Shown: positions 31,469-56,227 of the stretch, one piece after another
How positions within the stretch are numbered: position 1 is the first letter of the stretch
Layout of the letters: every line of letters begins with the position of its first letter
NCBI GenBank assembly: GCA_951406725.2
Contig: OX597816.1
Coordinates: 142,476,001 to 142,540,000, forward strand
Reading direction: 5' to 3'
Length of the DNA stretch: 64,000 nucleotides
Source of the DNA: Octopus vulgaris
Taxonomy: Eukaryota
Made by a program: the position numbers and the translations under genes
The notes under the pieces: model-generated
The model's input: the letters and a program-made list of their open reading frames with translations, nothing else
What the model was told of the DNA's origin: nothing
The model's database searches: none

Positions 31469-33179
31469 TTATGCTATAAAAGTAGTATGAAAATAAAGGT
31501 TATAAATACAATGAATATTTTAACAAAGTATATGCAATTTTAACTAAGTTTAAGAAAGTAAATGGAAATTAAAGAATTAAAAAAAAAAAAGAAATCAATA
31601 TTTCTAATGTGCTACAAGGTTACAGAATTATAGTCAAGGCTCATTTGAACTTTCAAAATTTTATTCCGTCAAGTACTAAATGTAGTTGACCAATACATTC
31701 ATTTAACTTGAGTTTAATATATATGTGTTGCATAAATATGTACATTACTTTGTACATAAAACATATCTGATTATTTAGCCCCAGACCACTCCTGAGCTTG
31801 CCAGCCATTCTGTATATCTGATACAATATGTCTAGTAATACATCATCAAATGCATTTTTTCTAAGAGGCAGTAGGAAGTGATTTGAGAGCAATTTGGCTG
31901 CTATTTTTTTTAACAGGTCAAGTGACCACATTGTCTCACTTAACACCTGTACCTCCCTTTGTTCATGCTATTCAAGTTACCCTTGAGCACAGTGAAAAGG
32001 AAGGAAAGTATTAATTTAATGAATTAATGAGAATTCGGACATGGTGTTAATTAAATTTGACCGGACAATGGTCACTGGAAAGAAAAGACAAGACTCACCC
32101 AGAGAGAAGACATGACCCAGTGGGCAGTTTAACTTCTCTAGTGTTGTGAGATAAAGAGGAATAGGCAGAGCAGATTGGAAAGAAAGGGTAGTAAAGCATG
32201 TTCAGAAGATAGAGGAGGAAGTTTCAGTAGTAGGAAGTGTGTAAGAAGGAAACGCAAATGAAAAGAAGGAGACAGACAGAAAGAAAGATAGATATAGAGA
32301 GAGAGGGGAGGAATCAGATAGACAGGAGGATTGATACAGAAATGACAGAAAGGGAAGGAGAATAAGTTGAAAAGAAAGTAAAACATAGAAAGAGGAAGAG
32401 TGGGAGAGAGAAAAGCAAACAGAAGAGAGAGAGAGACAGATATATAGGAATAAGTAGGAGAGAGAGTAAACAAACAGAAAGAAGAGTGAGAGAGGATAAG
32501 TAAGAGTAAAAATAGGGCCAAACAAAATGTGAATATGAAGAGGTTCTTGAGTAAATAAGGTTAAAAAGATTTTATTATCATTATAATTATTAATTATTAT
32601 GCTATAAAACTTATATGAAAATAAATGAATATTTTAACATAAAGTATATGCAATTTTAACCAAGTTTAAGGAAGTTAATGGAAATCAAAAAATGGAAAAA
32701 TATCAAATTTCCTAATGCACAGTGAGGTTACAGAACTATAGTCAAGGCTCGTTTGAGCTTGACCCAACATTTTGTTTGACCAATTTTCATTATACCTTGA
32801 ACAACTTCATTTCTCACAAAATTAGATCACTTGATCCCCAAAGTTATCCCATGTTTTATCTTTAAAAACTGTCTGAAAATTTTATATTTAGCCTGTAAAA
32901 CAGAAACCATGCCCTTTTAAATTTTGATGAATGTGTGTACATATGTGCGAAATGTTGAAAATACAATATTTGAAAAATATATAAAATAAGTAAGAATGAA
33001 GGAAAATAGATTTAATAAGAATAGAACAATTTTCTTCAATCAAATCACATTAAAATATCTAGTGACCTTTCCTTATTACACATATATTCTGTAGCTTCTT
33101 CAATTATTTTTTCAGCTCCTAACAGATTCCTAATGTTTTCTTCATTAAAATATCTAGGGTGATATCTACATTAAAATAT

Positions 33180-34426
33180 CTAGGGTGACCTTTCCTTATT
33201 ACACATATATTCTGTAGCTTCTTCCATTATTTTTTCAGCTCCTAACAGATTCCTAATGTTTTCTTCATTCTTTGCATTTTCACAGACAACCAAAAATGTG
33301 CTATTGTTTTTCCGTGCTCGGCCTCTCATTTGCACCAGAGTTACAACTGAAGTTGGTGGATTCAGTGTAATCACTAAAGAACACTTTGGTAAATCAACAC
33401 CTTCTTCAGCTACAGAAGTTGTAATAATAATTTGATGTTTACCCTCTTTTATTTCCTGAAATACCTTCCTTTGTGTACTTACTCTCATTCCATCACCACC
33501 ACCACCACCATGACCAGTGATACTAACAACAGAGAGATGCTTCTCATTAACCAATGGTGAAGTCTTCATCATCTTGCCAAGTTCAACAGCAGTTCTCCTT
33601 CTCTTCACCATTACTAATATGAGTCCAGATGGAATATCACAATTATCAGTCATGTATTCACCAATAGTTTTTACCAGATATTTAAACTGTGCTGAAACAG
33701 GGATATTGTTCCCTACAATTGTGTTAACTATTGATCTGATGTTATCACAACAAAGACCATTTCCAGAAGCAAGTGTAAACGAATATTCCTTATTTGAAGG
33801 ATCAGAAAGAAATTTTAGTTCTTCAACTATACAAGAAATTCCTCCATCGAGAGCATCTATAATAAGGGAAACAATTTTTTTAGTGTGATTAATTACGATT
33901 GTCCCTTTTTCCATTTCTCCAGTGATGGTTACAGACCTTAATCTTTCCTCAATTTCATTCAGAAAGCTTTTGTCAATTAAATCCTCATTCGATGGTATTA
34001 TGTTTCTTGAAAGATCAGAACAGTCCACAAGAACTTTCAAACATTCCAAAAGATATTTTTTAAACTCAGCTATATATGGTAACTCAGCATCTTGGAAAGG
34101 AATAGTTTGAATTTCTAAATGAGCAGTAGATTTATACTTCATTAGCTCTTTTGTTTCCTCTTTCACAATGTTAATTTTCGAATTGTTTAAATTAGTTACC
34201 AACGTTTGAAGCATAGTAATAGTTTTTGAAATGGTTTCCTTCCCAGCAGGTGAGGCAGTTAGTCCTAGTAATTGGGGACAATCTTTCTTTTCTAAAGTAT
34301 GGTGCTCTTCTCCCAAAAGTTTTCTGAATGGATGTTCTTTGTCTGAATGGTGGACTTCATCAATAACCACAAGACTGAAATCCTTCCATCTTAAGACTTT
34401 TTCTTTCATTCGACGATCACAGTATA
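33180..34426 (-). CDS. ZnF-RIG-I/Dicer-like DExH helicase, exon 4 (last): motifs II-VI
   Basis: Acceptor ttttacag at 34427 (phase 1). Motifs VVIDEVHH (II), LGLTASP (III), LVMVKRRRTA (IV), TSVAEEGVDLPKC (V) and LVQMRGRAR (VI); stop at 33180. Confidence 0.93.
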
Positions 34427-35244
34427 CTGTAAAAAAAAAAATGCCAAGCAGAAAATTAGAGAAAAATTTTGAAAACTTTTATATGTATTTTTTTTTAAAG
34501 TTTGTGTAGTCAAAAACTCTTCCACTATAATACAGATTGTATTTCCTTATATAGTCATAACATTTCTAGAGGAAGGTACAATAGAAGTCAAATTCGTTAC
34601 ATTTCTAGTATTTCATTTATCAAATCTAGAGTCTCAGATTGATTTATTCTCATCAAGAACACAAGAGAGAAGATCATTTTTATTACCATTATAAAAAGAA
34701 CCCAGTACATTCTGTTAAGTGGTTGGCATTAGTACGTGTCGTAGAAACCATGCCAAAGTAGACAGTAGAGTTTGGCACAATCTTTTGGTACACCAGCTCC
34801 TGTCAAACCATCCAATCGATGCCAGCATGGAAAACAAATGAGATGATGATGATAATTATTTCATATCAATCTCAAATGTTCGATTGGAATAAACAGGTGT
34901 TAAATAGTCACTCTATGCAGCAATACACTGGTCCCAGCATTCCTGCCATTATTGAAATCTGGCCTGGAAGTTGTTTTCTGTAAGTGAGTCAAGGACGTTC
35001 TGTAATTTGCTCTTGATCTCAACAATGACAAATAGGGCAGGTGCAGAAGCAATACCATTTCGTTTTTGGCAAGAAACTCATGAGTGAGGAGAGTTCAGTG
35101 ACGGTGCATTATCATGAAAAATCCAATTCTTTGCACTTCACAAATCCGGTCACTTTTGCAGAATGTCCTTCCTCAAATGCTTCAAAACATTGCTGTAGAA
35201 TTATTTACATTTGACAGATATTTGTCTTCATCTTGTTTGTTGTT

Positions 35245-35292
35245 AAACACAACGTTTCGGCTGATATACCCTCCAACCTTCATCAGGTGTCT
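35245..35292 (-). ncRNA. minimal type-I hammerhead ribozyme motif
   Basis: Minus strand reads AGACAC-CUGAUGA-A-GGUUG(gaggguauau)CAGCC-GAA-A-CG-U-U-GUGUUU. Stems I and II pair, the core is intact, and stem III is a minimal palindrome (ACGU). Confidence 0.75.
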
Positions 35293-35370
35293 TGGGGAAA
35301 TTTCAAATCTGGGTTCTCATTCTTAAGGTATTTTTCAATGTTATTATCATTATCATCTTCATCATCATCA

Positions 35371-35422
<52 letters not shown>

Positions 35423-35607
35423 CATCATCATTATTGTTCAGGTCACTGCCTGGAATCAAACTTGGAATCTTGGGGTTAGTAGCCCAAACTCTAAACCACT
35501 ACGCCATATGCCCATGGGCATATGGTGTAGTGGTTAAGAGCGCGGGCTAGTAATAATAACATCGAAAAATACCTTAGGAATAAGAATCTAGGCTCGAAAT
35601 TTCCCCA

Positions 35608-35653
35608 AGACACCTGATGAAGGCAGGAGGCTATATCAGTTGAAACATTGTGT
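35608..35653 (+). ncRNA. degenerate hammerhead motif (second arm)
   Basis: agacac-CTGATGA-a-ggcag...cagtt-GAAACATT-gtgtt; stem II is partly broken. Confidence 0.55.
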
Positions 35654-37349
35654 TAACAACAAACACGATGAGGACAAATATCTGTCAAATGTAAATAATG
35701 TACATAATTCCTCACCTCTTAAATATAGAACTGTATCGCTGTAGAATTCTTGATTGACAATCTGGCCCTGGGGGACAAATTCTCAATGCAAAATACTGTG
35801 AACATCAGAAAAAACGATGAGCTTGCTCTTGATTGAGCTATGGAGATGAAGGGCTCTTCAATTGTGATGAATGCTGCTTCATCTTGGAGTCATACTCATA
35901 GACCCAAAGCTTGTCACTAGTGATGATATTCAACATGAAGGATGGGTCATCAGCAGCACGCTGACAGAGATATTGACAGACTTCAACACAATGTTCTTTT
36001 TGCTCAGTGGTTAGCAGATGGGGGACAAATGCTGCATGTTCAATTCAGACATTAGAATTGCTGCACAAACCCATATGGTAGACCAACAACATGATCCCAA
36101 AAACACAAATTTCATAACTTGCGAAGTTAACACAGTGATGTCACACTGTCTCATGAAGGTCACTGCTAGCTCTTACTGTGCATGCAACCATGTGCTACCA
36201 TCTGTTGGTGTGCTAAAGAACTAATCTGGAAACTTTTTGATACGACCTTGTACACACACACACACATATATATGCATATATATAAGTGGTAAGAACTGAT
36301 CTAAGGATGTTGGGTTTCACAGAAGAAATGACAATGGACAAAGATGTCTGGTGGTATATTCTTGAGAAGACTTGCCCACATCAGCAAAACTGAGTTCTAG
36401 AAGCGCTCTGTGTTCCACCCACATGTAACAAGAAAACTTTTCATATACCCTACCCCAACAAACCAAATTACATTTCTTGTCTGCCTTACATTTCCTCCTT
36501 CATGCACTATGCTTACCTCTTACTCTCCAATCCTGTCCTCATGGTCATGTTTCTCTGTATTATTGCTATTCGGTAGTCCTACACACCTCTATATACCCAA
36601 ATTTTCACCAGTCACTACATTCTTCTTCCTCACTCTCTACTAACACTTCTTTAGCAATGTCCTGTCACTTATATTATGACTTTCAAACCTCAAGGGTATG
36701 CCCTGGCACTTGCCACCATCTATCTCTCTCTCTTCCTTTACTCAACCATCCCATTTATATTCTGATCCCCATCCTTTGTGAGTATGCCTGACACTTTACC
36801 ACCATCCCTATCCTGCTATCTCCCACTCTCTCTCTCCTCCTGCTCTTCCTTCAGACAGGTTAACCATTTATCTCCTTTACAGCAGCTCACCTGTTTCTGT
36901 CCTCATTCCTGATCTCTCTCTATCTCTCTCTCCAGCCGGGTAACCATGTACCTCCTCTACAGTGAGACATCTATTTCTGTATGAAAGGCTCACAATAGCC
37001 TTTCATATCTGACACAAGATCACCTCCTCCAATGCCCCCTCCCCTCTCAAAAGGTCGTTGTCTTGCAAGTTATTTGGTGACTGTCAGTGCAGGTACCACT
37101 TAAAAAGCATCCAGTCCACACTGTAAGTGGTTGGCGTTTGGAAGGGCACCTAGCTGTAAAAACTTTGCCATGTAAAAAGCACTCTGTAGGGTGGTTGGTG
37201 TTAGGAAGGACATCCAGCCATGAAAATCCTGCTAAAACAGACACAAAAGTCTAGTGCAGGCATTTGCCTGGTCAGCTCCTGTCAAACTGCCCCACCTGTG
37301 CCATCGTTAAACGATGATGACGCATATATGCGTATTATATATATATATA

Positions 37350-37510
37350 TAGGTGCAGGAGTGGCTGTGGTAAGTAGCTTGCTTACCAACCACATGGTTC
37401 CCGGTTCATTCCCACTGTGTGGCACCTTGGGCAAGTGTCTTCTACTATAGCCTCGGGCCGACCAAAGCCTTGTGAGTGGATTGGTAGACAGAAACTGAAA
37501 GAAGCCTGCC

Positions 37511-37585
<75 letters not shown>

Positions 37586-37785
37586 TGTGTGTCTGTGTTT
37601 GTCCCCACAACATTGCTTGACAACCGAAAGTGGTATGTTTACGTCCCTGTAACTTAGCGGTTCGGCAAAAGGGCCCGATAGAATAAGTACTAGGCTTACA
37701 AAAAATAAGTCCTGGCGTTGATTTGCACAACTAAAGGTGGTGCTCCAGCATGGCCACAGTCAAATGACTGAAACAAGTAAAAGAG
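37350..37785 (+). mobile_element. full-length tRNA-derived SINE with internal (TA)n
   Basis: Head 'gcaggagtggctgtggtaagtagcttgcttaccaaccacatggttcccggttcattccc', tail 'gactgaaacaagtaaaaga'. Confidence 0.85.
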
Positions 37786-37919
37786 ATATGCATATATGCA
37801 CATATCCATATATATGCATATATACATATATGCAAATATGCATATATGCATATATACATATAATAATAGTAATCCATAGACAGAATTTATAAATATTTTA
37901 ATGTGTCACTATACACATT

Positions 37920-38452
37920 TTCCCATTGACCCAATTTGCTGACTTTTCTGATGGCACGCAGGTGTTGATGAATGGTTGAATTACCAAATCCAAGCTTCTC
38001 TGCTAGTTCCTCAATAGTTACGATGGGATTTTGTTCCACCAGGGTTTACAGGACATCCTTGTCAAGCTCCACAAATCTTCCAGGATGAGGCTCATCCTCA
38101 AGGCTGTAGTTTCCAGCTCAGGATTTCTGGAACCACCGTTGACTGGCTTATGCTTATTGTCCGATCCCCATATATTGCATTAATATTCCTCTCACTCCCA
38201 TTGTGTTGTTAGCTTTATTGATCTCATAAAGCAAAATATGCTGAATATGCTCCTTTATCACTTCCATTATAGCTTTGAAAAAATAACTGTCAAAATCGAA
38301 CTGCACTCTTCAAAACTTGCACAAAGAATAAGTGCAAGGTAAAATTACTACCTGCTTTTATAGCAAGTTGATGCAGGTAATTTATCCTGTCCCCCTCCAA
38401 CTTTTCATTCATGCAATTGAAAAAACCGCATTATTTATAGGATAACCCAATA
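37920..38452 (-). mobile_element. mariner (Mos1-like) 5' remnant
   Basis: TIR TA|TTGGGTTATCCTATAAATAATGCGGTTTTT. Minus peptides QRWFQK..GNYSLEDEPHPGR, NPIVTIEELAEKL and HLRAIRKVSKLGQW. Confidence 0.8.
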
Positions 38453-38457
38453 CATAT

Positions 38458-38504
<47 letters not shown>

Positions 38505-39326
38505 AGCATACATATACATACATATATGTAGACACACACACAAACATATATTCATACACACACAAACATATATTCATACATACATATATATATATACATA
38601 CATACATACATTCATACATACATACACACACACATATATATATATATACATACATACATTCATACATACATACACACACACATATATATATATACATACA
38701 TTCATACATATATACACACACACACACATATATATATATATACATACATACATATTCATACATACATATATATATACACACACACATACATATATATATA
38801 TACATACATACATATTCATACATACATATATATATACACACACACACACATATATATATATACATACATACATATTCATACATACATATATATATACACA
38901 CACACACATATATATACATATATATACACACATACGTATTTATACATACATATATATATATACACACACACACATATATATATACATATATATATATACA
39001 CACACACACATATATATATATACACACACATATTCATACATACATATATATACACACACACACATATATATATACATATATATATATATACACACACACA
39101 TATATATATACATATATATACACACACACATATATATATACATATATATACACACACACATATATATATACATATATATATATACACACACACATATATA
39201 TATACATATATATATATACACACACACACATATATATATATATACATATATATACACACACACACATATATATATATACATATATATACACACACATATA
39301 TATACAGACATATTCATACAAACATA

Positions 39327-39362
<36 letters not shown>

Positions 39363-39447
39363 CACACACACACACATATATACACACACACATATATATA
39401 CACACACACACACACATATATACACACACACACACACACATATATAT

Positions 39448-39485
<38 letters not shown>

Positions 39486-39532
39486 TCATACATACATATA
39501 TATATATACACACACACACACATACACATATA
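38452..39532. repeat. compound (CA)n/(TA)n/(CATA)n microsatellite
   Basis: Directly visible. Confidence 0.95.
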
Positions 39533-39534
39533 TT

Positions 39535-39915
39535 TTGCACTGTAAGTTACACCAATGCTAGAACGGGACGACACTGCATAGTGCCAAATGTCCCAGCAAT
39601 GCCATCACGCTTCGGGACCAGCTTCTGCAACAGCCTTGGTTTCAAGGGCCCACAGCTTTTTAATATTCTCCCAAAGAGTCTGAGGAACTTGCACAAAGTA
39701 GATGTAGCAGTTTTTAAATCAAAACTGGACATCTTCCTGTCAAGAGTCCCAGATGAACCTACTTCACGGCAAGAGGTGCAAATGAGAGTAGCTGTATCAA
39801 ACTCCATTCCTTACCAAGTGCCACATATTAGACGAGGTTCGTCGCAATAACAGTGTAGCACAAAACGGCGGTGCATCAGCATGGCCGCAGCTCTGAGCTG
39901 AAACTAGAAAAAAAA
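39535..39915 (+). mobile_element. CR1-like LINE 3' fragment
   Basis: Peptide RTGRHC...[20 protein letters not shown]...[18 protein letters not shown] followed by an A-rich tail. Confidence 0.7.
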
Positions 39916-39919
39916 CAAA

Positions 39920-39936
39920 AATACACACACATACAT

Positions 39937-39975
<39 letters not shown>

Positions 39976-40000
39976 CACATACATATATATATATATATAT

Positions 40001-40089
<89 letters not shown>

Positions 40090-40360
40090 CATACACACAC
40101 AGATATATATATACAAATATATATATATATATATACACATACATATTCATACATACATATATATATATACACACATACATATTCATACATACATACACAC
40201 ACATACATACACACACACATATATACATACACACACATATATACATACACACACACATATACACATACACACACACATATATACATACATATATATACAC
40301 ATACATATTCATACATACATATATATATATATACACACACACATACGTACATATATATAT
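39920..40360. repeat. compound (CA)n/(TA)n microsatellite
   Basis: Directly visible. Confidence 0.95.
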
Positions 40361-40500
40361 AGGGAGATGTACTGGCATAGCAAGTGACCTGATCTGAGAT
40401 TGTGCGCTGGAACGAAAACAATTGCAGCGTGGAAGGTGTTTATAAGCCATTTAAGAAACACACAAAAACTGTTAGATTCACTTCAACATTTAAATTTAAT

Positions 40501-40549
40501 TTGTCAAAATATTTCCGTCGCTTTGAGACCGCGACCTGTTCACTGACAA
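40501..40549 (-). ncRNA. hammerhead variant (G3:C8), copy 1
   Basis: UUGUCA-GUGAACA-G-GUCGC(ggucucaaa)GCGAC-GGAA-AUAU-UU-UGACAA; A13>G substitution in this copy. Confidence 0.55.
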
Positions 40550-40576
40550 AACTCCATGCTGAGATGCAGCAGAGTT

Positions 40577-40625
40577 TTGTCAGTGAACAGGTCGCAGTCT
40601 CAAAGCGACAAAAATATTTTGACAA
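40577..40625 (+). ncRNA. hammerhead variant (G3:C8), copy 2
   Basis: UUGUCA-GUGAACA-G-GUCGC(agucucaaa)GCGAC-AAAA-AUAU-UU-UGACAA; G12>A substitution in this copy. Confidence 0.55.
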
Positions 40626-41410
40626 GTTAAATTTAAATGTTGAAGTGAATCTAACAGTTTTTGTGTGTTTCTTAAATGGCTTATAAACACCTTCCAAGCT
40701 GCAATTGTTATATATATATATATATATATATACATATACATGTTGCATGGTAGTGAGACATGGGTTCTAACTGCGGAGAGCATGCATAGGCTGGAGAGGA
40801 ATGAAGGTAGTATGCTTCATTGGATTTGCAATATCAGAGTGCATGACCGAGTACTGAGATATGCAGAGGTGCATGAAACTGAATAGAGGGAAAGAGAAGT
40901 TGATAGGTTAGTATCTAACTGGGGTAGTATTGTGTGGTTTTGGTTGAAGAGGAGAAATGAGTGAAGGTAAAGAATACCACTTGCGAGGATGAGGAGGCTA
41001 TGAGGAAGATGGGGATGAGGTGGATTAGAGGAATTTGCAAAGGTAACAATGAGAAGGAATAGTTTAATAAGAAGCGTATTATTAGATGAGATGCATAAGT
41101 TGTGGTACCTCAAGGTTAATTTTAATTCTACTTCTATCATAACACTGGTCAACTGATTGCAATGATAGAAGACACTTGTCCAGGACCACTTATTTTCAAA
41201 GCAAACTTCTTAACCACACAGCCATATGTACACCAATTCATCTACTAACTTCTCCCAGACTAATCAGTAGTATTGAATTCCCCACTGCCATCTCAAGATC
41301 ACTATTACAAAATAGTTGTTAGTGGTGCATTTAGAAACAGAAGAAGAATAATATCTTTTATTTTACAAATTACATGGAATATTTATAAAAGGAAACTTGA
41401 AAGAACTGAC

Positions 41411-41535
41411 CTGCTGTACTGATAATAACATCATACAATGATAAAGGATCCTTAGCAGACCCTGGATGACCACCATAGACACAAATTATCTTTAGGTTCC
41501 GTTCAATAATATTTTCAATATTTGTTGTATCAAAT
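41411..41535 (-). CDS. ZnF-helicase exon 3 (motif Ib region; absent from the ORF track)
   Basis: Acceptor ctttatag and donor G|gtcagt. Reads (R)FDTTNIENIIERNLKIICVYGGHPGSAKDPLSLYDVIISTA; phases 2 and 1 match the neighbouring exons. Confidence 0.85.
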
Positions 41536-42189
41536 CTATAAAGACAAGAAACATTTTTTTTATGATTTGCAGTTATTTGTTAAGAAGTTTATGGAAGTAT
41601 TAAATAGTAAAAATTGTATTGTTAATTTTTTTAATTCAATCAAATACATTTGCATTCTTATAATTTAAAAAACCTAAAAACTTTCATTAATAACAAAATG
41701 TTAATTCAAAAAATAACACCATCAAAACTAGCTGCAACCACGTAGTACTATAACTACTACTGTTACTAATATTACTACCACCACTACAGTTGCCACCTCC
41801 ATAACTGTCACTATTACCACTACAGTTGCTACCTCCATGACTGTCACTATAAACACTACTACTACCACTCTCACACTTCACTTGTTACCTTTACTACTTC
41901 CATCACATCCAAATATATTTCAGCATGTTCCCAATACAACATATTTATTTATTCAGCTGTAACAGTTTAAATTATTAAATGCTATTGTAATAACCTTGCA
42001 TAACAATACCAGGACTGCCAAAGAATACCAAGTGGCACACCACTTCCTGCTCACAGTGGGTGCTAGAAGTATTGTTGACAACCACCTGTTAGGAAGCTTA
42101 GGTCAGACTTGATCCAGCTGATGATGTATATTCAGAGATGTTCCAGCTATAAGCACCCAATATTTTATTCAGGTATTTAATTTATTTTA

Positions 42190-42535
42190 CTTGTTTCACT
42201 CACTTGACTGCAGCCATGCTAGGGCACCACCTTGAAGGGTTTTAGTTGAACAAAACAACCCTAGGACTGTTTTTTTAAGCCTAGTACTTATTCTACCAGT
42301 CTGTCAAATCTCTAAGTTACAACATCAACACCAACACTAATTGTCAAGCAGTGATGGGGGAATAAATACACACACACACACACACAGCAGGCTTCTTCGA
42401 GCTTCTGTATACCAAATCCAAGGTTTTGCTCAGCCTGAGGCTATAATAAATGAACTTGCCCAAGGTGCCACACAATGGAACTGAACCCAGAACCATGTGG
42501 TTAGGAAGCAAACTTCTTACTACACAGCCATGCTA
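42190..42535 (-). mobile_element. SINE (same family as 37350)
   Basis: Reverse complement of the head 'ggctgtgtagtaagaagtttgcttcctaaccacatggttc' plus body. Confidence 0.75.
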
Positions 42536-43641
42536 TGATTACATTATCCAATGTGCCCTTATCTTTTAAGATGACAAAGTATAAATATGATGGAGATTCT
42601 GCTCTTATTTCTAGCAAGCCAGGCAGCAACATAATGGTTGGCTCAATGAGGACCACCAGAGAATGATGAACATGGTAGATGTGCTGTTGTTTCAGATGTG
42701 TAACAGGTGTTGTACCCTCTGTTGGACACACAACAGAATTTGCAAAATAGAAACGCAAGCTATGGGTTGATGTTAGGAGTGAAGTTGTGTGAAGCTGTTA
42801 AATAATTAACAATGATTGTGAAATTAAAGTACTGAACTCCAAATCAAATAGCTATGTTAGTGTTAACATATTTAATGCAGGAAGAAGGAATAACTGTGTT
42901 GAAAAACTATACTAGTCTACAAACTAATGTTATTTTCATTCTTCCAGGCAAATATGGAAGAAAACTCTGGATGTGTTTTAGTATTATTCTGACCTAATCA
43001 GCAAATCATAATGTTCATCATAAATGTCAAAGCAGTAAAAACAATAATCACAAGTTAACTGTACAATACTGTACATTTGTTGGTACAGGAAAACAGAAAT
43101 TGAATATCTCAGATGCCAAATTCAATAATCGAAATATAAAACCTTTCTATAACAGCTGTTAATATTAACTCTAGTAGGGCGGCAAGCTGACAGAATTAGT
43201 AGCACACCAGGCAAAATGTTTAGTGGCATTTCATTCATCCTTATGTCCTGACTTCAAATTCTGCTAAGGTGAACTTTGCCTTACATCCTTTCAGGGTTTA
43301 TTAAATAAGTACCAGTTGAGCAGTGGGGTCGATGTGATAGACTTAACTCCTACCTCATGAAATTACTGACCTTGCACCAAATTTTCTACCGAATATTATC
43401 AGGTCATTAAGAATGAAATGTGTGATTTGGAACTGAAAGTTTATTTTACTTTATCTCAACAAAAAGCAATGCAGTTAATCAAAGTATGCATCTAAATTAT
43501 CAACACAATTTTGCTATTTTATCACTAGCTTATTTCTGCTGACAGTGAAGAATTCTGGAGAGCAAAAGGTGATGAAATCACAAAAGGCTGTTTTTGCATC
43601 ATCAGATTTGAAGTTTTTTCCTTGCAAAAAGTTCTCTAATG

Positions 43642-44800
43642 CAGTGATTCCCAACATGGTCTCCAGAGAATTCGTAGCCATAAAAAAATTGAAGCCATTT
43701 CAGATCTACACAATATTGTTTGATAATGAATGAAGACAGAATAATAATAAGAAAACAATATTCGATAATTATTCCATAAGAATCAATAATGTATAATATA
43801 TAATCAATAATATATTACAATCAAGAATTACATAACTTACATTTTACAATCACAACAGTTACATAATAAATCTGATATTTTTAATAGATCACTAGACAAT
43901 ATTGTTTAATAATAAATTTGATACTTTTAATTTATAGAAATAAAGTATTATTTTTATTTGTAATAATGTCTGAAACAACTGCTAAAAAGGCAAAACTACA
44001 AAGATTTTATCATGTTTGGTTTTGTATCTGTAGACTCAAAACCTATGTGTCTTGAATGTGATGCCATCATGACAAATCATTCCTTGAAGAAAGTTAAGCT
44101 AGAACAGCACCAGAAATTAAGACTTCCCTCATCTGTTGGTAAAGGTAGGGAATATTTTGAGGATAAAAAGAAAATACAGCCAATCAAACTACCCGACTGA
44201 AAAAGCAAAGACACTCAAACCAAGTTATTTTGTCTCTGAAATTATTGGTAAGGTTGCAGTACCTCAGATTTATGGTGAGAAACTTGTCAAGCCTGCTATG
44301 ATAGCTTGTGCAAATGAGGTTCTGGGAAAAGATGCTGCATCTACTCTGAGTACAATTCCACTTTCAAATAACACAATTACAAGAAGACAGGATGAAATGT
44401 CTAATTTTGTTGAGAAGAAAATTGTAGAAATTCTCCAAAAGACAAATTTTTCTATCCCGGTTGATACTAGCACAATTCATAACCAAGCTATCCTTTTGGT
44501 CTATGTCAGATTCATCCATGAAGATGATATAAGGGAAGAAATGTTATTCATTAAAAGTTTGTCTGAAACTACTAATGAAGAAAATATATTCAATGAAGTA
44601 ATGCAGTATTTTAATATAAATATTTCATAGACAAATTTGATCAACAAGGCTGATTTTTAAGAGTAAAGTCACCAGACAGGAACTTCTCAAATCATCGACA
44701 TACAGTGTGTTCATTCGCCACATCTTCATCAAACATTTCCTTGGTTTTGAGCTGTCTGGGATGCATTGGTTCCATAACGTAGCTCAACACAAATTTTTGG
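43642..44800 (+). mobile_element. hAT (Buster/ZBED5-SCAND3-like) transposon remnant
   Basis: CAGTGATTCCCAA terminus. BED-finger remnant FGFV..KPMCLEC...KLEQH, then GEKLVKPAM, IPLSNNTITRR and ILLVYVRFI; frameshifted. Confidence 0.85.
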
Positions 44801-45169
44801 TCAATCCATGGATTCACAAAAATTGATTTACAAGAGAAAACTCACAGACACCATGAATTACATTTTGAAAAGTGATGATGTAACTCTTCAATGTTGCAAA
44901 ACAAAGAATTGTCAGGATAAAACATTAGAGTTAACAACTGTCAAACTTGGTGCATAAGAAAATTGGACATTTTATTCTTAATGACCTGATAACTCTGATA
45001 TTTCTTGTTTGCTTCACGGACACCAGTTCCATTTGTATTTCATGTTTAGGTGGTTAGCAGTAGGAAATACATCAACAAATAAAGAAAACAGTAATATATA
45101 AATATCCAAAGTATTTGCAGATAAATGGATACAAACAGTAACAAACAGTAACAAAAAGAAAAGACGAAC

Positions 45170-45323
45170 CTGGAAAATTTCTGATCTTTCAACTCATTTT
45201 GAATATAATGGAATTGCTGCAAAGCCAACAGTACTTTGTCAACAATGAACAACACAGGACGTCTAGGATTTCGTTTTAACATATGAGAAATTACCATAAT
45301 ACTTATTAGAGTTTTACCAGTTC
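45170..45323 (-). CDS. ZnF-helicase exon 2 (Walker A completion, motif Ia)
   Basis: Acceptor tttacag. G|GA joins exon 1 to give LPTGTGKT, followed by PVLFIVDKVLLALQQ; donor AG|gttcgt. Confidence 0.92.
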
Positions 45324-45825
45324 CTGTAAAAGAGCAATATAACAACAATAAATCTTCTCAGTGTTTTCTAATTTTTTTTTTATTTTCTAATTCTACAATC
45401 TTCATGACAAAATTCTAATGTAAAATAGCTTTTCTTTTTAGTTTCCTAAGTCAATATTCTTTTTTTAAAAAAATATTCTAACATTGGTTAGTATATGCTT
45501 AAGAAATATTAGGAGTGGAAGTAAATTCAGTACCTGTCCGATTTTGCAACTACAGTGAATTAATTTGCTTTTCATTTGACAACAAGCAATGCCACTGTTT
45601 TCACACTTCCTCTTATCGATCTTTTCTTTTGCTTTGTTACATTCATATTAGACATTCACCAATAATAATGACAGAACTTCTGAGGTTGAGTGACCTGCTA
45701 GAAATAAAATCCAAATCTCCCTCCTCGACAAATGATGTAGCTCTAATCATTTCAATGCCTCTTGTATTTTTTTTTCCTTATTCATTACAAGATAAAATTA
45801 AATATATTATTAAAATAACATTTTT

Positions 45826-46305
45826 CACGTGTATGAGAGAGAATCGTGATGTTGTAGGAGAGAAATGTGTCCACATGGATGATGGTTCATTTGCACTAAA
45901 CGAGGCTGCAAAGAGAGAGGTTTGGAAACGCCACTATGAAAGGTTGCTCAATAAAGAAAATGAATGGGAGAAAGAGTCTGCTGAATGTCAACCCAACAGA
46001 GGGACCAGCTATCCAAATTGACAGTACCTTGGTAGATAAAGCAATTAGGAGTATGAAGACAGGGAAAGACCCCGGCCCATCAGGAATCACTGCAGAAATG
46101 TTCAAAATATCTGGCAGTGTTGGCTATAGCCTAGTCACCCGTATAGTTAACCAGGTGATACACGAAGGAGTCATACCCAATGACTGGTGTAGCAGCACCA
46201 TAGTCAACGCTCTAGATACAAATAACTACAGAGGTATCAAGTTGTTGGATCAGGTAATGAAGGTCACAGAGAGGGTCATAGCCCAACTAATTAGGGAGAG
46301 AGATG
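45826..46305 (+). mobile_element. RTE LINE internal fragment
   Basis: Near-identical to the reverse complement of 25030-25400 (PTEGPAI..KTGK.PGPSGITAEM..NYRGIKLL). Confidence 0.9.
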
Positions 46306-47599
46306 TTAAACGATGATGATGATGTTGTAATTGTGTATTATCAATTTCTATATTTTTTTATATGTGTATTGGTGCGTATTTTGTGTTTGTGTGTTTTGGT
46401 TAGAGATTATAAAAGTAAAAGGATTTTGTCTATTTAGTTGTTTCGACAGTTTTCCATACTGTATGGTCCTATATTTGCATTACAGAATATTTTTTTATTG
46501 TTTTCACGTTTTTTTTTAATTTATTGTTTGTCTGCCTTACAATGCAACATCTTTTCACTGCAAACTGCTAAAGATGCAAAGCAGTATTCGTGAACTGAAG
46601 TCAAACACTTCATGTCTTAATTTATCGTTACCTGAAGTCAATTTCAGAGTAGTCATGCACTACCATTTTTGAACATACCAATCATACTTCTTTCCAAAAG
46701 AATAGTTCCTTTTACTGTTGAATAAACTTGCAGAGGGGAAGTTTCAACATCTTCTTTCAATTTCCTTACACCATTTATGTGGCTGTTTCTGACAAGAAAT
46801 TTCACTTTCATGTAAAACAACTATATTTTGTTGTCATTATCTGTAATCTACTCCCAAAACACTTCAGTAGCTCTACTTTGCATCATAAAAATGCAACAAC
46901 CTCAACAATAGCCAGACTTCTATTTGGTTTTGTAATTCTTAGGTTAATCAGAAACATAGTTTGCTGTGCATTATCCTTCTTGGTAGTTCAAAGCAACTTA
47001 AACCGTCCAAAAGATGGGTGCATTTGCTAGTTTTATATAAATACCTTTCAAACGGCATACCTTTCTATTCACACTCAAAATATTGAGTGTTTATGGGGAA
47101 GCCTGAAAAAGTGTATTATTCGACCTGAAATGAGACCTAGCCAACCCAGCGACTTCATTAGTTTCTTTTGGAGGCTGGAAGACTATACTCCTGTTCCTGA
47201 TGACATGGAAGAATGTATACCGGTTCTTGATGTCGTTCACCAATAACTCCTATAAGGTACGTTGGCGCATTTTTTACACTTTAAAACATTCTCCTTACTC
47301 CCAACTAAGCTTATACTGTAAAACGTTCAATACAGGTCTTCCTACACCCATTAGGCTTGTTAACTTGCTTACTGGTGGCTCAGAGAACTTGTAATAATTA
47401 ACCGAAAGTTTTAACAAATATGGATGATATCAGACTGTCGTGAATATGCTAAAAACAACAGCTAAATTAGCCTTAACTTTTTCTAAAGTAAAACCATATT
47501 CAACACCATATTTATCTTTTAAAAAACCTTTTTCTATTACTCAAACAAGAAAAAAATGAATCTAAGGTTTTTTTTGGGGGGGGGTGGGGAGCTGGACGA

Positions 47600-50500
47600 C
47601 AGTCAGCCACCCGCTCCCTCAAAAAAAAACCAATCTTTCGGAATTTTTTTTTGCTTTCTCAGTGGATTCCTAGGTTTTTAATGATGCAGATTCCGAATAT
47701 GCAAAAAAGAAATCACGTTTTTAAAATTCTAAATCCCCACCCCCAATTTTTTTATTTTAAACTTTTTTCGAAATTTTTTTTTTTCAATCTCCGTAGAAAA
47801 GTACGGAGATTTACAATATGGCAAACAAAAAATTAATTAATTTCAAATTCTATATGAAAAAATCCAACTTTGATCCACTCGGTGTGGATCAAATTTGGAC
47901 TATGTAGATCCCGAGAACGTAGAAAGTTGGGGAGAAAATAATTCGGGGTTACTTTTGAGGACCGTTCCCTACTCGAGGGAGTATCGGAACAAGTCATCCG
48001 TATTTATTTCATTTTCTCCGTTTTGTGCGTTTGTGCATCCGTAGATTTCTACTGAAGTCACAGGCAATGAAAGACAATTTTCTACGAATGTGTTATATTA
48101 TGTAGATTCTGAATACACAAAACTTTTGGGGAAAAGTGTTTTAGGAGGGGGTAGTGTGTGGAATTTCGGAAAATTCACCGGCGTCCACTTCAACTCGTCT
48201 TAATACTTTTCAGAGTACGTAAATTACGATTATATCGGAATTTGATTTGACAAGAAAACTAGAACACTCACATACATACGACACCTATCACTAATTTCTT
48301 CGAAATTTCAAGTTTCATTTTGTAGATATACGTGACATGTTAGTATGTACGTGTACGAGCCCACCAAATTTATTTTTCATATTAAATTCTGATATAGTCG
48401 TTAAAGATTACGCACACCACCCGTTTTCGATCTAACCCTAACCGCCGAAAACAGGTAGTGTGCTGGCGAGCTGGCAGAAACGTTAGCACGCCAGGTGAAA
48501 TGCGTTGCCGTATTTCGTCTGCCGCTACGTTCTGAGTTCAAATTCCGCCGAGGTCGACTTTGCCTTTCATCCTTTTTATTTTTTACTACTACTATTATTA
48601 TTATTATTATGAATTTTTTGAAAACTTTACCATATCTGTATTCTACACACGAGAATTCATACGAAACTTAACAGATCCTTCAATGGATCGATTATACAAA
48701 AATAGGAAAGACTTCCTGGCATAACTACGGATTTCTGCGCACACACACACACCGACTTTGGATGATCATAATTTTCAGAAAAATGGATATTTTTTTAATG
48801 AAATTTTCTACAAATGTGTTATGTCACGTAGATTCCGAATACACAAAACTTTTGTGGGAAAGTGTTTTAGGAGGGGGGGTGAGGAATTTCGGAAAAGTCA
48901 CCGGCGTTCACTTCAATTCGTCTTAACTTCCAAGAAAATAGATATTTTTTAATGAAATTTTCTACAAATATACCTCTGAGTACGTAGATTCTGAGAACCT
49001 AGGAATTTGGTGGAAAAACAATTGGGGGTTACTTTCGAGGAGCGTTCCCCACTCGGGGGAGTTTCAGAACAAGTCGTCCATATTAGTTTCATTTTCTCCG
49101 TATTGTGCGTTTGTGCATCCGTAGATTTCTACCGAAGCAGCTGGCAATGAAGCTTTTACCAGAAAACTAGTTATGCTAAAAATACTAGCTAAACAGAAAG
49201 ACATTGAATAGAATAATTCCGTTTGAACTGTTTGATTACATATATAATTGCGTGTGTGTGTGAGAGAGAGAGAGGGGGGAGACTAGAAATCTACGGGTGC
49301 ACAAACGCACAAAAAGGAGAAAATGAAACTAATTTGGACTTGTTCCGTAACACCCCCGAGTTGAGAACGGTCCTCAAAAGTAACACCCAATTGTTTTCCC
49401 CCAAAATTCCTATGTTCTCGGAATCTACATAGTCCCAGCTATATTTGTAGAAAATTTCATTAAAAAATATCTATTTTCTTGAAAGTTAAGACGAATTGAA
49501 GTGGACGCCGGTAAATTTCCCGAAATTCCCCCACCCACCACTCCTAAAACACTTTCACCCAAAAGTTTTGTGTATTCGGAATCTACATGACATAACACAT
49601 ATTCGTAGGAAATTTCATTAAGAAATATCCATTTTTCTGAAAGTTATGATCATCCAAAGTCGGTGGGGGGAGGGGACAGGAATCTGTAGTTATGCCAAAA
49701 ATAACAGCTACAGGTCTAATACAACTTATCTGTTGCATACGATCTTTAAAGGCGGAAAACACCAGAAGCAAAAATAAATAATATACATGCACAGTTAAAT
49801 ATAGAAGTGTAAGTTGTTATATAATCCCTATAGTAAATATATAATTCCTTGTTTGGACTTTTTTAATTACATGTGTGTGTGTGAGAGAGTTGTAGAAATC
49901 TATAGATGCAAAAACACACAAAACGGAGAAAATGAAACTAATATGGACGACTTGTTCCGAAACACCCTCTAGTGGAGAACGGTCCTCAAAAATAACCCTC
50001 AGTTGCTCCCCCCCCATTCCAATGTTCTCGGAATCTACAAAGTCCAAGGTATATTTGTAGAGAATTTCGTTAAAAAATATCCATTTTCTTGAAAGTTAAG
50101 ACGAATTTAAGTGGACCCTGGTGAATTTTCCGAAATTCTCTACACCACCCCCTCTTAAAACACTTTTCCCCATAAGTTTTGTATATTCGAAATCTACATC
50201 ATATAACGTATATTCGGAGACAATTTCTTTTAAAATATATCCATTTTTCTGAAAGTTATGGTCATCCAAAGTCGGGGTGGGGGCAGAAATCGGTAAAGGT
50301 ACCCAGAAATCTATAGTTATGCCGACTTCCTTTTGTATCCACCTATAATATATATTTTTTTAATATTAGACATGTTGGAAAATTGATTTCCTACTATGTC
50401 TTATAATAATAATAATGATGAGAAAGTCATGAAAATTAGGAATTTCTATTTAAAAAAAAAAATTCATTTTTGTATCATGTATATTCATGTCCCAAGGTTA

Positions 50501-51260
50501 GACAAATTGGGACACGAATATACATAATACAGAAATCCTTACCAAATGTGCTAGTGAGTAACATCCCCATATAATACCGAAGCCATTACAAAACTGACAA
50601 GACCACAAAAGGTATCTGTTAACGCGCAGACGACATCTCTATGTGTTATTTTTTTTAAATTTATGCTGGGGTACAAAAGGAAGTCTCCCCCCCACCCAAA
50701 AAAAAATCGGTGCGTGATTAAGGGTTATTTAGCTGTTATTTTTAACAGAGCTTACGACTCATATCCTCCTCATTTATCAGTTTGACATATTGAGGTTTTT
50801 CAAGATCTTTCTCCCCATAAATACATTTTTTTAAAATTCGTGTGAATTCCCGTGTGTAGAATATAAGTTCGTAAAAGTTTTCTGAAAATTCCAAAAAATA
50901 AATAAGTCATGAGGAGTTACAAGGCATACTTAAAACAGAATTCTGCCAAATTTCATTTTTTTAAAAATTACATATTCTCTGAAAGTTGAGTAAAAGCCAT
51001 CTCGTGAATTTTCCAACACCCCTCACCCCAACCCCAGAATTTTTTTTTAACGATATGATCAGAATCTACACCACCTGAACAAGGCCGGTTTGAGGTAACA
51101 GCAACTCGGGCGGTCGCCCGGGGCGCCAGCAATTCCAGGGCCGGCCCTGCACCTGAAGCATAGTTGTAGAAAATTTCATTAAAAAGTATAAATTTTTCTG
51201 AAAGTTATGAGACAACAAAGACGTGGGTGGGACACTTACTTTCGATTTAGTGAAAATTTA
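47600..51260. repeat. cluster of inverted copies of one repeat family
   Basis: Plus copies at about 47850-48210 and 48755-49135; minus copies at about 49283-49700 and 49890-50325. 48611-48665 mirrors 50837-50895. Confidence 0.75.
51080..51149. mobile_element. 70-bp hAT-type micro-MITE
   Basis: Ends CAAGGCCGG...CCGGCCCTG; 8-bp TSD CACCTGAA (51072-51079 / 51150-51157). Confidence 0.8.
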
Positions 51261-51477
51261 ACTAGTCCTAGAATCGATGATTGCCCTAAAGAAACACTAA
51301 GTGAGAGAAAATTTTGTCTTGAATCTTATGGTTTTTCAAGTTTTTCTCTGTTTTTTTTCGATTCTTATTACTTAAATCAAATGTTCGTGCTTTTTTAACC
51401 TTTGAAAATGAGCAAATATACAATATTTCTAGAATTATTTTTTTAAATATATTAAAAATGCAGAAAATATATCAAAC

Positions 51478-52150
51478 CTGTGGGTAAAAATATAACGCTA
51501 TCGTAACAATGAGATTTTTCGAACAATTCGGCTTGGTAACCTCTTGGAATTGAATCTGTCAAGCAATAAGCCTCATCGACAGGGTCTTCACAGTGGCGTA
51601 CGATGGGGGGCAAATTATAAAGTTTTGATGGTTGTTCGGAGACATTTTTGGAGTGTGCGCTACTTTGCAAATGAGAAGTTACAGCACTCAGACATTGAAG
51701 TTTTTTAGAACAAAGAATACACTTATATCCTATTATCTCGCCGACTTCATCTTTATAAACGCGTATAAATTCGTTATGATCTAAAGACGTGGGCTGTACT
51801 GAAACAATGTTCGGAATGACTTCCGCCTGTCTAGTGTTCTCATCTTCTTCGCACGTCTGTGTCGTCTGCACGTTAACAGATACCGTTTGTGATCTTGCCG
51901 GTTCTGTAACGGCTTCGGTATTACATGGGGATACGTTACTCACTAGCACATTAGGTAAGGATGGGTATACCTGCTGTACATAACTTGCCGGTTCTACCTC
52001 CTGAATAGGTAGAGATGTGCAAAAACGTTCTCTATCAGAAAGTTTTTTTTTATGCTTCTTTCCCAATAAATGACTTTCTTTATGTTCTTTGGATGTATAC
52101 TGGACGATACACAAATCGCACCTACCAAGGGTGCCCATTGTTGATGACAT
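51478..52150 (-). CDS. ZnF-helicase exon 1: two U1/matrin-type C2H2 zinc fingers + helicase Q motif
   Basis: First ATG at 52150 (the track's 52168 start is GTG). Fingers CDLC-x12-HLLGKKH and CILC-x12-HLQSSAH; then PRGYQAELF (Q motif) and VIFLPT; donor G|gtttga. Confidence 0.9.
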
Positions 52151-52169: not shown

Positions 52170-52620
52170 CTAATAACTAAACATAACTTGTCAGAAATTA
52201 AATTTGCGCATGCCTATAAGTGGTTGCGATAAGGTACTTATATGCCCCTATCCCGTATGACATGTAAGAATACTCAGTGACTTTTACTTCCGCGAAATAA
52301 CAGGTTGTGTGACCGGTTAATATGTCAATAAGATATTGAGACCAGGTAAGTCGAAGATATAAATGTCACAGAACAGCTTGGTTGCTTCGTAAGTCCTACC
52401 ATGCTGAATAATTCTTTAATGTTTACTGTGGTTCAGTTAATCCTGAATCATTCTCAGCTTTTACACATAATGACTTTTGGTTGTCTTTTTGATGAAATTA
52501 AAGATGATGCAGCAAGTGAAATGACGTGGGTAGTCCGCGGAAGTATAAGTGTTTGCATAGAGCACCGTCTAGCTAAAGGAGATAATCTACTTCTACTTAT
52601 CGGAAAGCATTTAAAGGGAG
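52170..52620 (-). promoter_or_regulatory. putative promoter of the ZnF-helicase gene
   Basis: CpG-retaining unique DNA just upstream of the ATG. Overlapping E2F-like TTTCGCGG and ETS CGGAAGT motifs (minus strand, about 52286-52297), a second CGGAAGT at about 52538, and GCGCATGC at about 52206. Confidence 0.45.
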
Positions 52621-55302: not shown

Positions 55303-56082
55303 GAAAGTGCCATCTCGCTGACATGTCCGAAGTGTGGGCAGGACAGGGAAACTGTCTTGCACGCATTCATAGAACAACTGTTGTCATCGATGGGAAGTGT
55401 ACAGCTATCAGCTGAGTCTATCATCGAGATTGTGCCCCCTCCTTCCCTTAACAGAGAGAGGAAGGCTTACTTTTTCTGCGTAGTAGCCATACTGAAAGAA
55501 AGAGTATGGAAGACGCATGTGAAAGGAATAGTGACAGGTACCTTTGTATCTGGCCATGGATTGGTTAACTTTTTTAATTACCACCTCAGTAGTAAGATCT
55601 GGTTGGAGAAGAGGTACCAGTCATGAGAAAGATTCGATAAAAGATGGAAGTTTGTGGCAAGAAAGCTAGGTAAGTGGAGCCCCGGAAGAAAAGAAAGTGC
55701 CATCTCGCTGACATGTCCGAAGTGTGGGCAGGACAGGGAAACTGTCTTGCACGCATTCATAGAACAACTGTTGTCATCGATGGGAAGTGTACAGCTATCA
55801 GCTGAGTCTATCATCGAGATTGTGCCCCCTCCTTCCCTTAACAGAGAGAGGAAGGCTTACTTTTTCTGCGTAGTAGCCATACTGAAAGAAAGAGTATGGA
55901 AGACGCATGTGAAAGGAATAGTGACAGGTACCTTTGTATCTGGCCATGGATTGGTTAACTTTTTTAATTACCACCTCAGTAGTAAGATCTGGTTGGAGAA
56001 GAGGTACCAGTCATGAGAAAGATTCGATAAAAGATGGAAGTTTGTGGCAAGAAAGCTAGGTAAGTGGAGCCCCGGAAGAAAA
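55303..56082 (+). repeat. 390-bp tandem duplication inside the Tx1-like element
   Basis: 55303-55692 is repeated at 55693-56082; the translated ORFs are identical. Confidence 0.95.
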
Positions 56083-56227
56083 GCAAAGGTTCTACCCTGA
56101 TGGCAGGATGCCTTTCTTGTTGCAGTGTGTATCAAGATTTTTGATAAATTCATCATTCGATAAAATGAACTTTTTAATCGTCACAGCTTCTTTACTCCTT
56201 TATGTTTGTCCCATCCTTGTAATACCT

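Follow-up and report, generated by a model that had tools for sequence, protein, structure and literature searches.

Gene Structure of the Octopus Zinc-Finger Helicase

The window analysed here is a stretch of 64,000 nt from Octopus vulgaris (assembly GCA_951406725.2, contig OX597816.1, positions 142,476,001 to 142,540,000), and coordinates below refer to this stretch. A gene encoding a helicase with N-terminal zinc fingers was located on its reverse strand, from 52150 down to 33180. Four exons of 673, 154, 125 and 1247 nt, joined at GT-AG introns, gave an in-frame coding sequence of 2199 nt for 732 amino acids (aa) and a stop, as the initial annotation had proposed. By-eye comparison showed that the spliced product has the same sequence as the database protein "dicer 2-1 [Octopus vulgaris]" (P0004). 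According to the translation and the AlphaFold2 (AF2) model, exon 1 (51478..52150) carries the ATG, two zinc fingers, a disordered linker (aa 44-121), the Q motif and the first half of Walker A. Translation and alignment placed the remainder of Walker A (TGKT) and motif Ia on exon 2 (45170..45323), and the region of motifs Ib/Ic on exon 3 (41411..41535). Exon 4 (33180..34426), whose acceptor position is common to many relatives, carries motifs II-VI, the Hel2i insertion, the final helix and the TAG stop.

The exon borders were compared with those of relatives, in which the positions of introns 1 and 3 recur. Junction 1 (51478/45323) was independently supported by a shared border, as two open reading frames (ORFs; P0368 and P0370) clustered with the close relative P0250 stop at the same codon, FLPTG. 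Junction 3 (41411/34426) was supported by a recurring border, since 20 of the 42 short ORFs that reach the C-terminus begin between profile positions 111 and 126, a range that includes the octopus exon-4 border (121). Junction 2 (45170/41535) is based on sequence-level criteria, namely frame, splice signals, the database model and continuous homology. Exon-4 words were present at 0.96-0.99 in 14 runs from four studies; the RNA nature of these runs is a guess, and they were not used as evidence.

Exon 1 had a single match across the octopus genome. The only other match to the gene was a duplicate of its 3' end, and a second gene copy was rejected. This duplicate of the last 28 codons was recognised by sequence comparison on the same strand right after the stop, in the 3' untranslated region (33063..33146). 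It has one substitution and a 2-nt deletion near its end, and is joined via a 26-bp tandem repeat (33063-33188).

With a profile built from 351 family fingers, no further finger turned up in the introns or elsewhere in the window, nor in the flanking 60 kb upstream and 20 kb downstream. DNA-level searches of the same regions with queries for CARD and for the C-terminal domain (CTD) of RIG-I-like receptors (RLRs) found no such exon; both queries did recover the octopus loci for CTD and CARD, which served as positive controls. A Dicer-tail query, which had no positive control, also gave no match in these regions. The Octopus bimaculoides model (P0005) has 499 aa and contains neither the fingers nor Walker A; it is probably an incomplete annotation.

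Zinc Fingers, Helicase Motifs and Predicted Fold

The pattern C-x2-4-C-x12-H-x3-5-H gave just two matches in the six-frame translation of the window, at 52120-52052 and 51721-51653, both in exon 1 and both of the form C-x2-C-x12-H-x5-H. Finger 1 (aa 11-33, 52052..52120) has a basic GKKHKKK helix and is likely of the matrin/JAZ type that binds double-stranded RNA (dsRNA). Finger 2 (aa 144-166, 51653..51721) has lost most basic residues and is predicted to be ordered with the helicase; its net charge is +1, compared with +5 for finger 1. For the matrin/JAZ assignment proposed earlier, Pfam scores in octopus were borderline: zf-met was barely at the cut-off (21.4 bits against 21.2) and zf-C2H2_jaz was below it (E 0.048). 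The family finger profile matched finger 1 at 3.8e-11.

All motifs of a superfamily 2 helicase that the initial annotation had listed were intact: Q (PRGYQAELF, aa 202-210, 51521..51547), I (LPTGTGKT), II (DEVH, aa 340-343, 34350..34361), III (LTAS), V (EEGVD) and VI (QMRGRAR, aa 683-689, 33312..33332). The Walker B box DEVH is followed by a IIa-like K-x-H-P-F stretch. This stretch is conserved as K-x-H-P-[YF]-N, and motif Vc departs from the RLR consensus; both motifs IIa and Vc, which are associated with second-strand contacts, are reported to be kept mainly at the structural level (PMC3590228). The protein ends 43 aa beyond motif VI, close to the earlier estimate of about 45. A Pfam scan of the octopus protein found no CARD, no CTD (PF11648), no DUF283, PAZ or tandem RNase III, no RNA-dependent RNA polymerase domain (RdRP, PF05183) and no dsRNA-binding domain (dsRBD).

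The AF2 model was made from 67 aligned rows (mean pLDDT 85.5, pTM 0.78) and replaced an 18-row version that left aa 1-170 unresolved. In this model, finger 1 is ordered and set apart by the disordered linker, and aa 131-200, comprising finger 2 and the link to the core, score 93-97, which suggests that finger 2 docks onto the helicase. Residues 199-732 of the model align to RIG-I 240-775 over 506 aa (Z 28.1, root-mean-square deviation 4.1), covering Hel1, Hel2i, Hel2 and the first pincer helix only. The long Hel2i-like insertion noted earlier corresponds in the model and the structural alignment to predicted helices at about aa 433-556 (33711..34082). The final predicted helix (aa 702-730, 33189..33275) aligns up to RIG-I residue 775; we call it the first pincer helix on the basis of what we take to be the pincer limits in RIG-I numbering. 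The 36 top entries of the structure search were RLR or DRH-1 structures, and FANCM, which followed at rank 37 (Z 25.2), had the alignment reaching furthest towards the N-terminus (181-725). The ESM Atlas search gave no match reaching 0.9, only lower-scoring ones.

Distribution and Architecture of the Family

A search for longer relatives returned 34 proteins of 1352-2394 aa (E <= 1e-78) from bivalves, gastropods, the nemertean Lineus and unnamed records, beyond which matches dropped to helicase-RdRP fusions at E 1e-45. The long members carry 6-13 fingers (median 10) N-terminal to the helicase. Further members were found in Argonauta, Ptychodera, Glandiceps, two crinoids, Montipora, Oscarella, Sycon and Macrostomum, so that the family covers molluscs (up to 13 fingers), a nemertean, a flatworm, hemichordates, crinoids, coral and sponges, all sharing the short end. 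Argonauta encodes the same protein with two fingers, 787 aa long. Among the named matches there was no vertebrate, arthropod or nematode member, in a search that was not dedicated to absence.

Of the 55 members that bear fingers, 52 matched simple patterns for motifs I, II and VI. Motif VI is present in 54, of which 50 end 38-60 aa past it. Two of the four exceptions are Dreissena isoforms (P0144 and P0145), which have tails of 520-578 aa with no Pfam match. The spacing from the last finger to Walker A is 73-86 aa in all but one of the long members (33 of 34), the exception being Lineus with 122 aa; in octopus it is 79 aa. The first finger is within 15 aa of the start in 18 of the 34 long orthologues, and linkers range from about 110 to many hundred residues. 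The Pfam model zf-C2H2_jaz ("double-stranded RNA-binding") was above cut-off in 10 of the 11 long members scanned, and the Argonauta fingers were above cut-off for zf-C2H2_jaz or zf-met. Members of the coral type (P0264, P0381 and P0319) have a Z-alpha domain ahead of two fingers, and in HelF of Dictyostelium the same N-terminal slot holds a dsRBD; both are duplex-RNA binders. No signalling domain, RNase III or RdRP domain was found in any family member scanned.

Because the motifs, the short end and the spacing from finger to Walker A are conserved across members, the short end with N-terminal fingers is, on sequence comparison, the ancestral design. By the same comparison, octopods lost the middle fingers, and their two-finger form is a reduced version within a family in which long members carry 6-13. 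A truncated or split gene model was rejected, given that no extra fingers lie nearby, exon 1 matches the genome once and Argonauta has the same architecture. The gene is real; it is neither a truncated RIG-I or Dicer nor an octopus oddity. Database names of members vary (Dicer, RIG-I-like, uncharacterised, "dicer 2-1", "DCL2-like"). We found no description of a family with this architecture in the open-access literature, and six gene identifiers had no match in main texts; the family is apparently unnamed.

Phylogenetic Position

Two trees were built, a quick one of 91 rows and a careful one of 60 rows rooted on archaeal Hef, with rows hand-picked from about 400 fetched proteins. The rows included two long RdRP rows and several of odd composition, but no eukaryotic FANCM and no named DRH; the RdRP-type label of P0304, P0318 and P0300 was given without a check for a full RdRP match. 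Some of the groups for the union tests were named with the first tree already known.

The finger-helicase family formed a single clade with support of 97 in the 91-row tree and 100/98 in the 60-row tree. It was joined by amoebozoan dsRBD-helicases, including HelF, at 96 and 98/94, respectively, the unnamed row P0291 being counted in the latter group at a tentative place. Family and HelF then joined the RdRP-fused helicases at 98/95 in the 60-row tree, apart from RLRs and Dicers. In approximately unbiased tests under the mixture model, a union of the family with RLRs, one with Dicers and an exclusive one with RdRP helicases were rejected with p values of 0.015, 0.004 and 0.017, respectively. 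With LG+F+G4, rejection was confined to the RLR union (p 0.009) and did not extend to unions with Dicers (0.072), RdRP helicases (0.20) or Hef (0.052). RLR membership was thus rejected under both models, and Dicer or RdRP membership only under the mixture model. Judged from these sequences, the family helicase is a separate lineage adjoining HelF and the RdRP-fused helicases; the HelF link is best supported, as distinct from proven orthology. The earlier suggestion, in which the fingers replace a C-terminal domain missing from an RLR or Dicer, found no support. A separate lineage next to HelF would mean that the fingers more likely occupy the slot of HelF's N-terminal dsRBD.

A FANCM/Hef-like dsDNA translocase, for which the FANCM structure match and the unrejected Hef union could be quoted, appears extremely unlikely. 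In the 60-row tree, where Hef was also the root, Hef was parted at 100/100 from all DRA-type rows (duplex-RNA-activated ATPases), the domains that relatives carry as N-terminal partners bind duplex RNA, and the probable oyster relative described below is dsRNA-responsive.

The grouping with HelF bears on another explanation, in which the family kept the role of HelF. The octopus protein would then act, probably in the nucleus, as a regulator: it would bind small-RNA intermediates or endogenous dsRNA and dampen RNA interference (RNAi), with dsRNA induction as feedback. The best non-amoebozoan matches of HelF in our local set were family members, deletion of helF is reported to make cells hypersensitive to RNAi (PMC2175303), and nucleolar localisation of ZNF346 is reported to need its fingers (10.64898/2026.06.03.729416). 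However, the RNA-binding domain differs (fingers instead of a dsRBD), HelF has about 150 aa extra in its tail, components of the endogenous small interfering RNA (siRNA) pathway are reported missing in most lophotrochozoans (PMC11114477), and the oyster relative is reported to act like interferon-type genes (PMC7064767). We consider this explanation possible but unlikely.

The Oyster "DICER" Gene and Its Induction

The oyster gene CGI_10020752 was called "DICER" and filed under RNAi (PMC7064767). The primers published for it there translate to the peptides TSVAEE and SEKMEE. SEKMEE was present in 5 of 409 fetched proteins, all of them family members and each with TSVAEE about 156 nt upstream; one of the five, P0125, carries 7 fingers and lacks RNase III. 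These primer-matched, unnamed oyster-like proteins are 74% identical to the Saccostrea member. From this sequence match, oyster CGI_10020752 is probably a member of the zinc-finger helicase family. The Aplysia orthologue of CGI_10020752 is reported to map to human DDX58, not DICER1, and to belong to an immune module with the hub ZNFX1 (PMC8195618). A review states that oyster dicer is not induced by ostreid herpesvirus 1 (OsHV-1) (PMC5869526), and CGI_10020752 being no Dicer would fit this statement.

Expression of CGI_10020752 after poly(I:C), compared with seawater, was reported with log2 fold changes of 0.81, 1.66, and 1.55 at 0.5, 1, and 10 days, respectively (PMC7064767 supplement). After OsHV-1 in unprimed oysters, log2 fold changes of 1.09 and 1.90 were reported, and the gene was listed among those with sustained upregulation in a 126-day experiment (PMC7064767). 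By analogy with these relatives, the octopus gene may be induced by dsRNA or virus. A term search of the main text of an Amphioctopus poly(I:C) paper found no mention of helicases or Dicer (PMC11252417).

Proposed Function

Fingers of the JAZ/ZNF346 type bind dsRNA with avidity, and duplex RNA activates a Hel1-Hel2i-Hel2 core without being unwound by it. ZNF346 is reported to have four fingers and high avidity for dsRNA (10.64898/2026.06.03.729416). We propose that the octopus protein, as a family member related to HelF, acts as an inducible dsRNA clamp. The fingers would tether the protein to long dsRNA, and the RIG-I-type core would hydrolyse ATP to move along or remodel the duplex. The output would be remodelling or presentation of dsRNA that aids antiviral defence, with neither signalling nor cleavage. 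More speculatively, the protein could displace other proteins from viral or endogenous dsRNA, or hand RNA to RLR, Dicer, ADAR or PKR-like partners, in the way that LGP2 acts as a cofactor. An inducible, dsRNA-clamping ATPase that serves as effector or cofactor, neither signalling nor cutting, is what these sequences make slightly probable. The dsRNA-ATPase chemistry itself, which is common to this reading, the HelF-like one, and the Dicer-motor and sensor readings discussed below, is very likely.

The initial annotation had suggested a non-canonical invertebrate dsRNA sensor or RNAi helicase. A non-canonical invertebrate dsRNA helicase is supported by the conserved architecture, the RLR-core fold and an oyster relative probably induced by poly(I:C), but a sensor in the signalling sense is unsupported because no signalling domain was found. 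A true upstream sensor would have to signal through an unknown adaptor on the disordered linker or the fingers. The RLR-like fold of the model, its long low-confidence linkers, and a CARD-less planarian RIG-I reported to signal (PMC11103948) would be compatible with such a sensor, which we nevertheless regard as very unlikely: the scanned members carry no signalling domain, linker length varies widely, and a CARD and CTD locus exists separately in octopus, on contig C2. There, the single genome match for PF11648 lies 130 kb from a CARD locus on the same strand, and the two are probably the canonical octopus RLR gene.

The family might instead supply an in-trans motor for Dicer, as nematode DRH-1 does, and compensate for a decayed mollusc Dicer helicase. 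The DECH box of mollusc Dicer is reported to be degenerate, reading ECSN in cephalopods (PMC11114477), and the octopus zinc-finger helicase is intact; Dictyostelium Dicers are likewise reported to lack a helicase (PMC2175303). On the other hand, the family is older than molluscs, being present in sponges, coral and deuterostomes, it contains no known Dicer-binding domain, and antiviral siRNA is described as unproven in oyster (PMC5869526). Such a motor seems distinctly unlikely.

Several points weigh against the proposed clamp. Matrin/U1-type fingers are also able to bind protein or single-stranded RNA, and the octopus fingers score weakly in Pfam. Only finger 1 is strongly basic in octopods, so that tethering would be weaker than in 10-finger orthologues. 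The coral-type members P0264 and P0381 have a degenerate motif VI, and ATPase activity would therefore not be universal in the family. RLR and FANCM Z-scores are only about 3 apart. For the octopus protein, dsRNA binding, ATPase activity, localisation and induction are predictions. The oyster link consists of two 6-residue primer peptides matched to unnamed oyster-like proteins, with the true oyster Dicer outside the set, and the oyster induction is modest and indicates regulation, not function. HelF, the nearest characterised relative, is reported as a nuclear RNAi suppressor and not as an antiviral effector (PMC2175303, PMC4894637).

For the family as a whole, we see the chances as evenly balanced that animals have kept, since before the sponge split, a third lineage of duplex-RNA ATPases that has gone unnoticed next to RLRs and Dicer. 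This lineage would come from the HelF branch, grip dsRNA with zinc-finger arrays (and with Z-alpha in corals), be induced by virus as part of an invertebrate interferon-like response, and have been read as "Dicer" in oyster. If so, an ancient branch would be added to the small set of dsRNA motors in animal antiviral defence, with a tie to an amoebal RNAi regulator. The long-lasting "DICER" induction of primed oysters, filed under RNAi, would probably report a protein unable to dice. The 732-aa octopus protein would be a compact member for biochemistry, and oyster with OsHV-1 a ready in vivo system.

Other Features of the Window and the Octopus Genome

A 159-aa open frame lies at 52350-52829 on the forward strand, 200 bp upstream of the ATG and opposite to the gene. 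It had no Pfam match, and its only Atlas leads, below 0.9, were to RAG1/transposase-like clusters. Broken reverse-transcriptase-like frames were found at 21923-25428, 45900-46316 and 53451-56088; they are probably remnants of long interspersed nuclear elements, an assignment leaning on motifs that we take to be typical of these elements. The last of these regions contains a 390-bp tandem duplicate at 55303-56088. Elsewhere in the octopus genome, 11 CARD_2 matches were clustered in about 200 kb (C24:38852643-39058600).

Comparison with Known Systems

HelF (DDB_G0294407, Q86L44; P0405) belongs to the nearest named clade and also combines an N-terminal duplex-RNA-binding module with a Dicer-type helicase, with no RNase III, CARD or CTD. 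HelF and the family share a P-T-[TS]-V-T-A stretch ahead of motif VI. Unlike the octopus protein, HelF is amoebozoan, has a dsRBD in place of C2H2 fingers and a C-terminal tail longer by about 150 aa, and is known by report for suppressing RNAi in the nucleus.

In JAZ/ZNF346, ZFa and ZMAT3, too, the C-x2-C-x12-H-x5-H fingers are far apart and their second helix is basic, and the octopus N-terminus matched ZFa weakly (E 0.44). To our knowledge, these finger proteins have no helicase.

The RLRs (RIG-I, MDA5 and LGP2) share with the octopus protein the Hel1-Hel2i-Hel2 fold, the first pincer helix (Z 26-28) and motifs Q to VI, and a relative of the octopus protein is probably dsRNA-induced as well. 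The octopus protein differs in having no CARD and no CTD, in ending at RIG-I 775, in an identity of about 20% and in its separate clade. Caenorhabditis elegans DRH-1 and DRH-3 are invertebrate duplex-RNA ATPases without CARDs, as the octopus protein is predicted to be, and the DRH-1 structure matched with Z 26.2, but DRH-1 retains the CTD.

With Dicer the similarity is in the helicase, the best PDB sequence match being the reconstructed ancestral Dicer helicase AncD1D2 (E 3.7e-29), but the octopus protein has no DUF283, PAZ or RNase III. RNase III matches in the octopus genome lie on C4, on C11, and on C3 at 40 Mb from the gene. Helicase-RdRP fusions, such as the Dictyostelium Rrp type, were the next matches after the family, with about 29% identity, whereas the octopus protein has no RdRP domain; an RdRP search of the octopus genome, run without a positive control, gave no match. 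Two RdRP-type helicases (P0293 and P0304) showed a weak N-terminal match to the RIG-I CTD (E 9e-5 and 2e-5, respectively), and a CTD fold may stand ahead of the helicase in that lineage. Taken by its sequence, the octopus protein does not pass as an RLR, a Dicer or a helicase-RdRP, and would work like a DRA.

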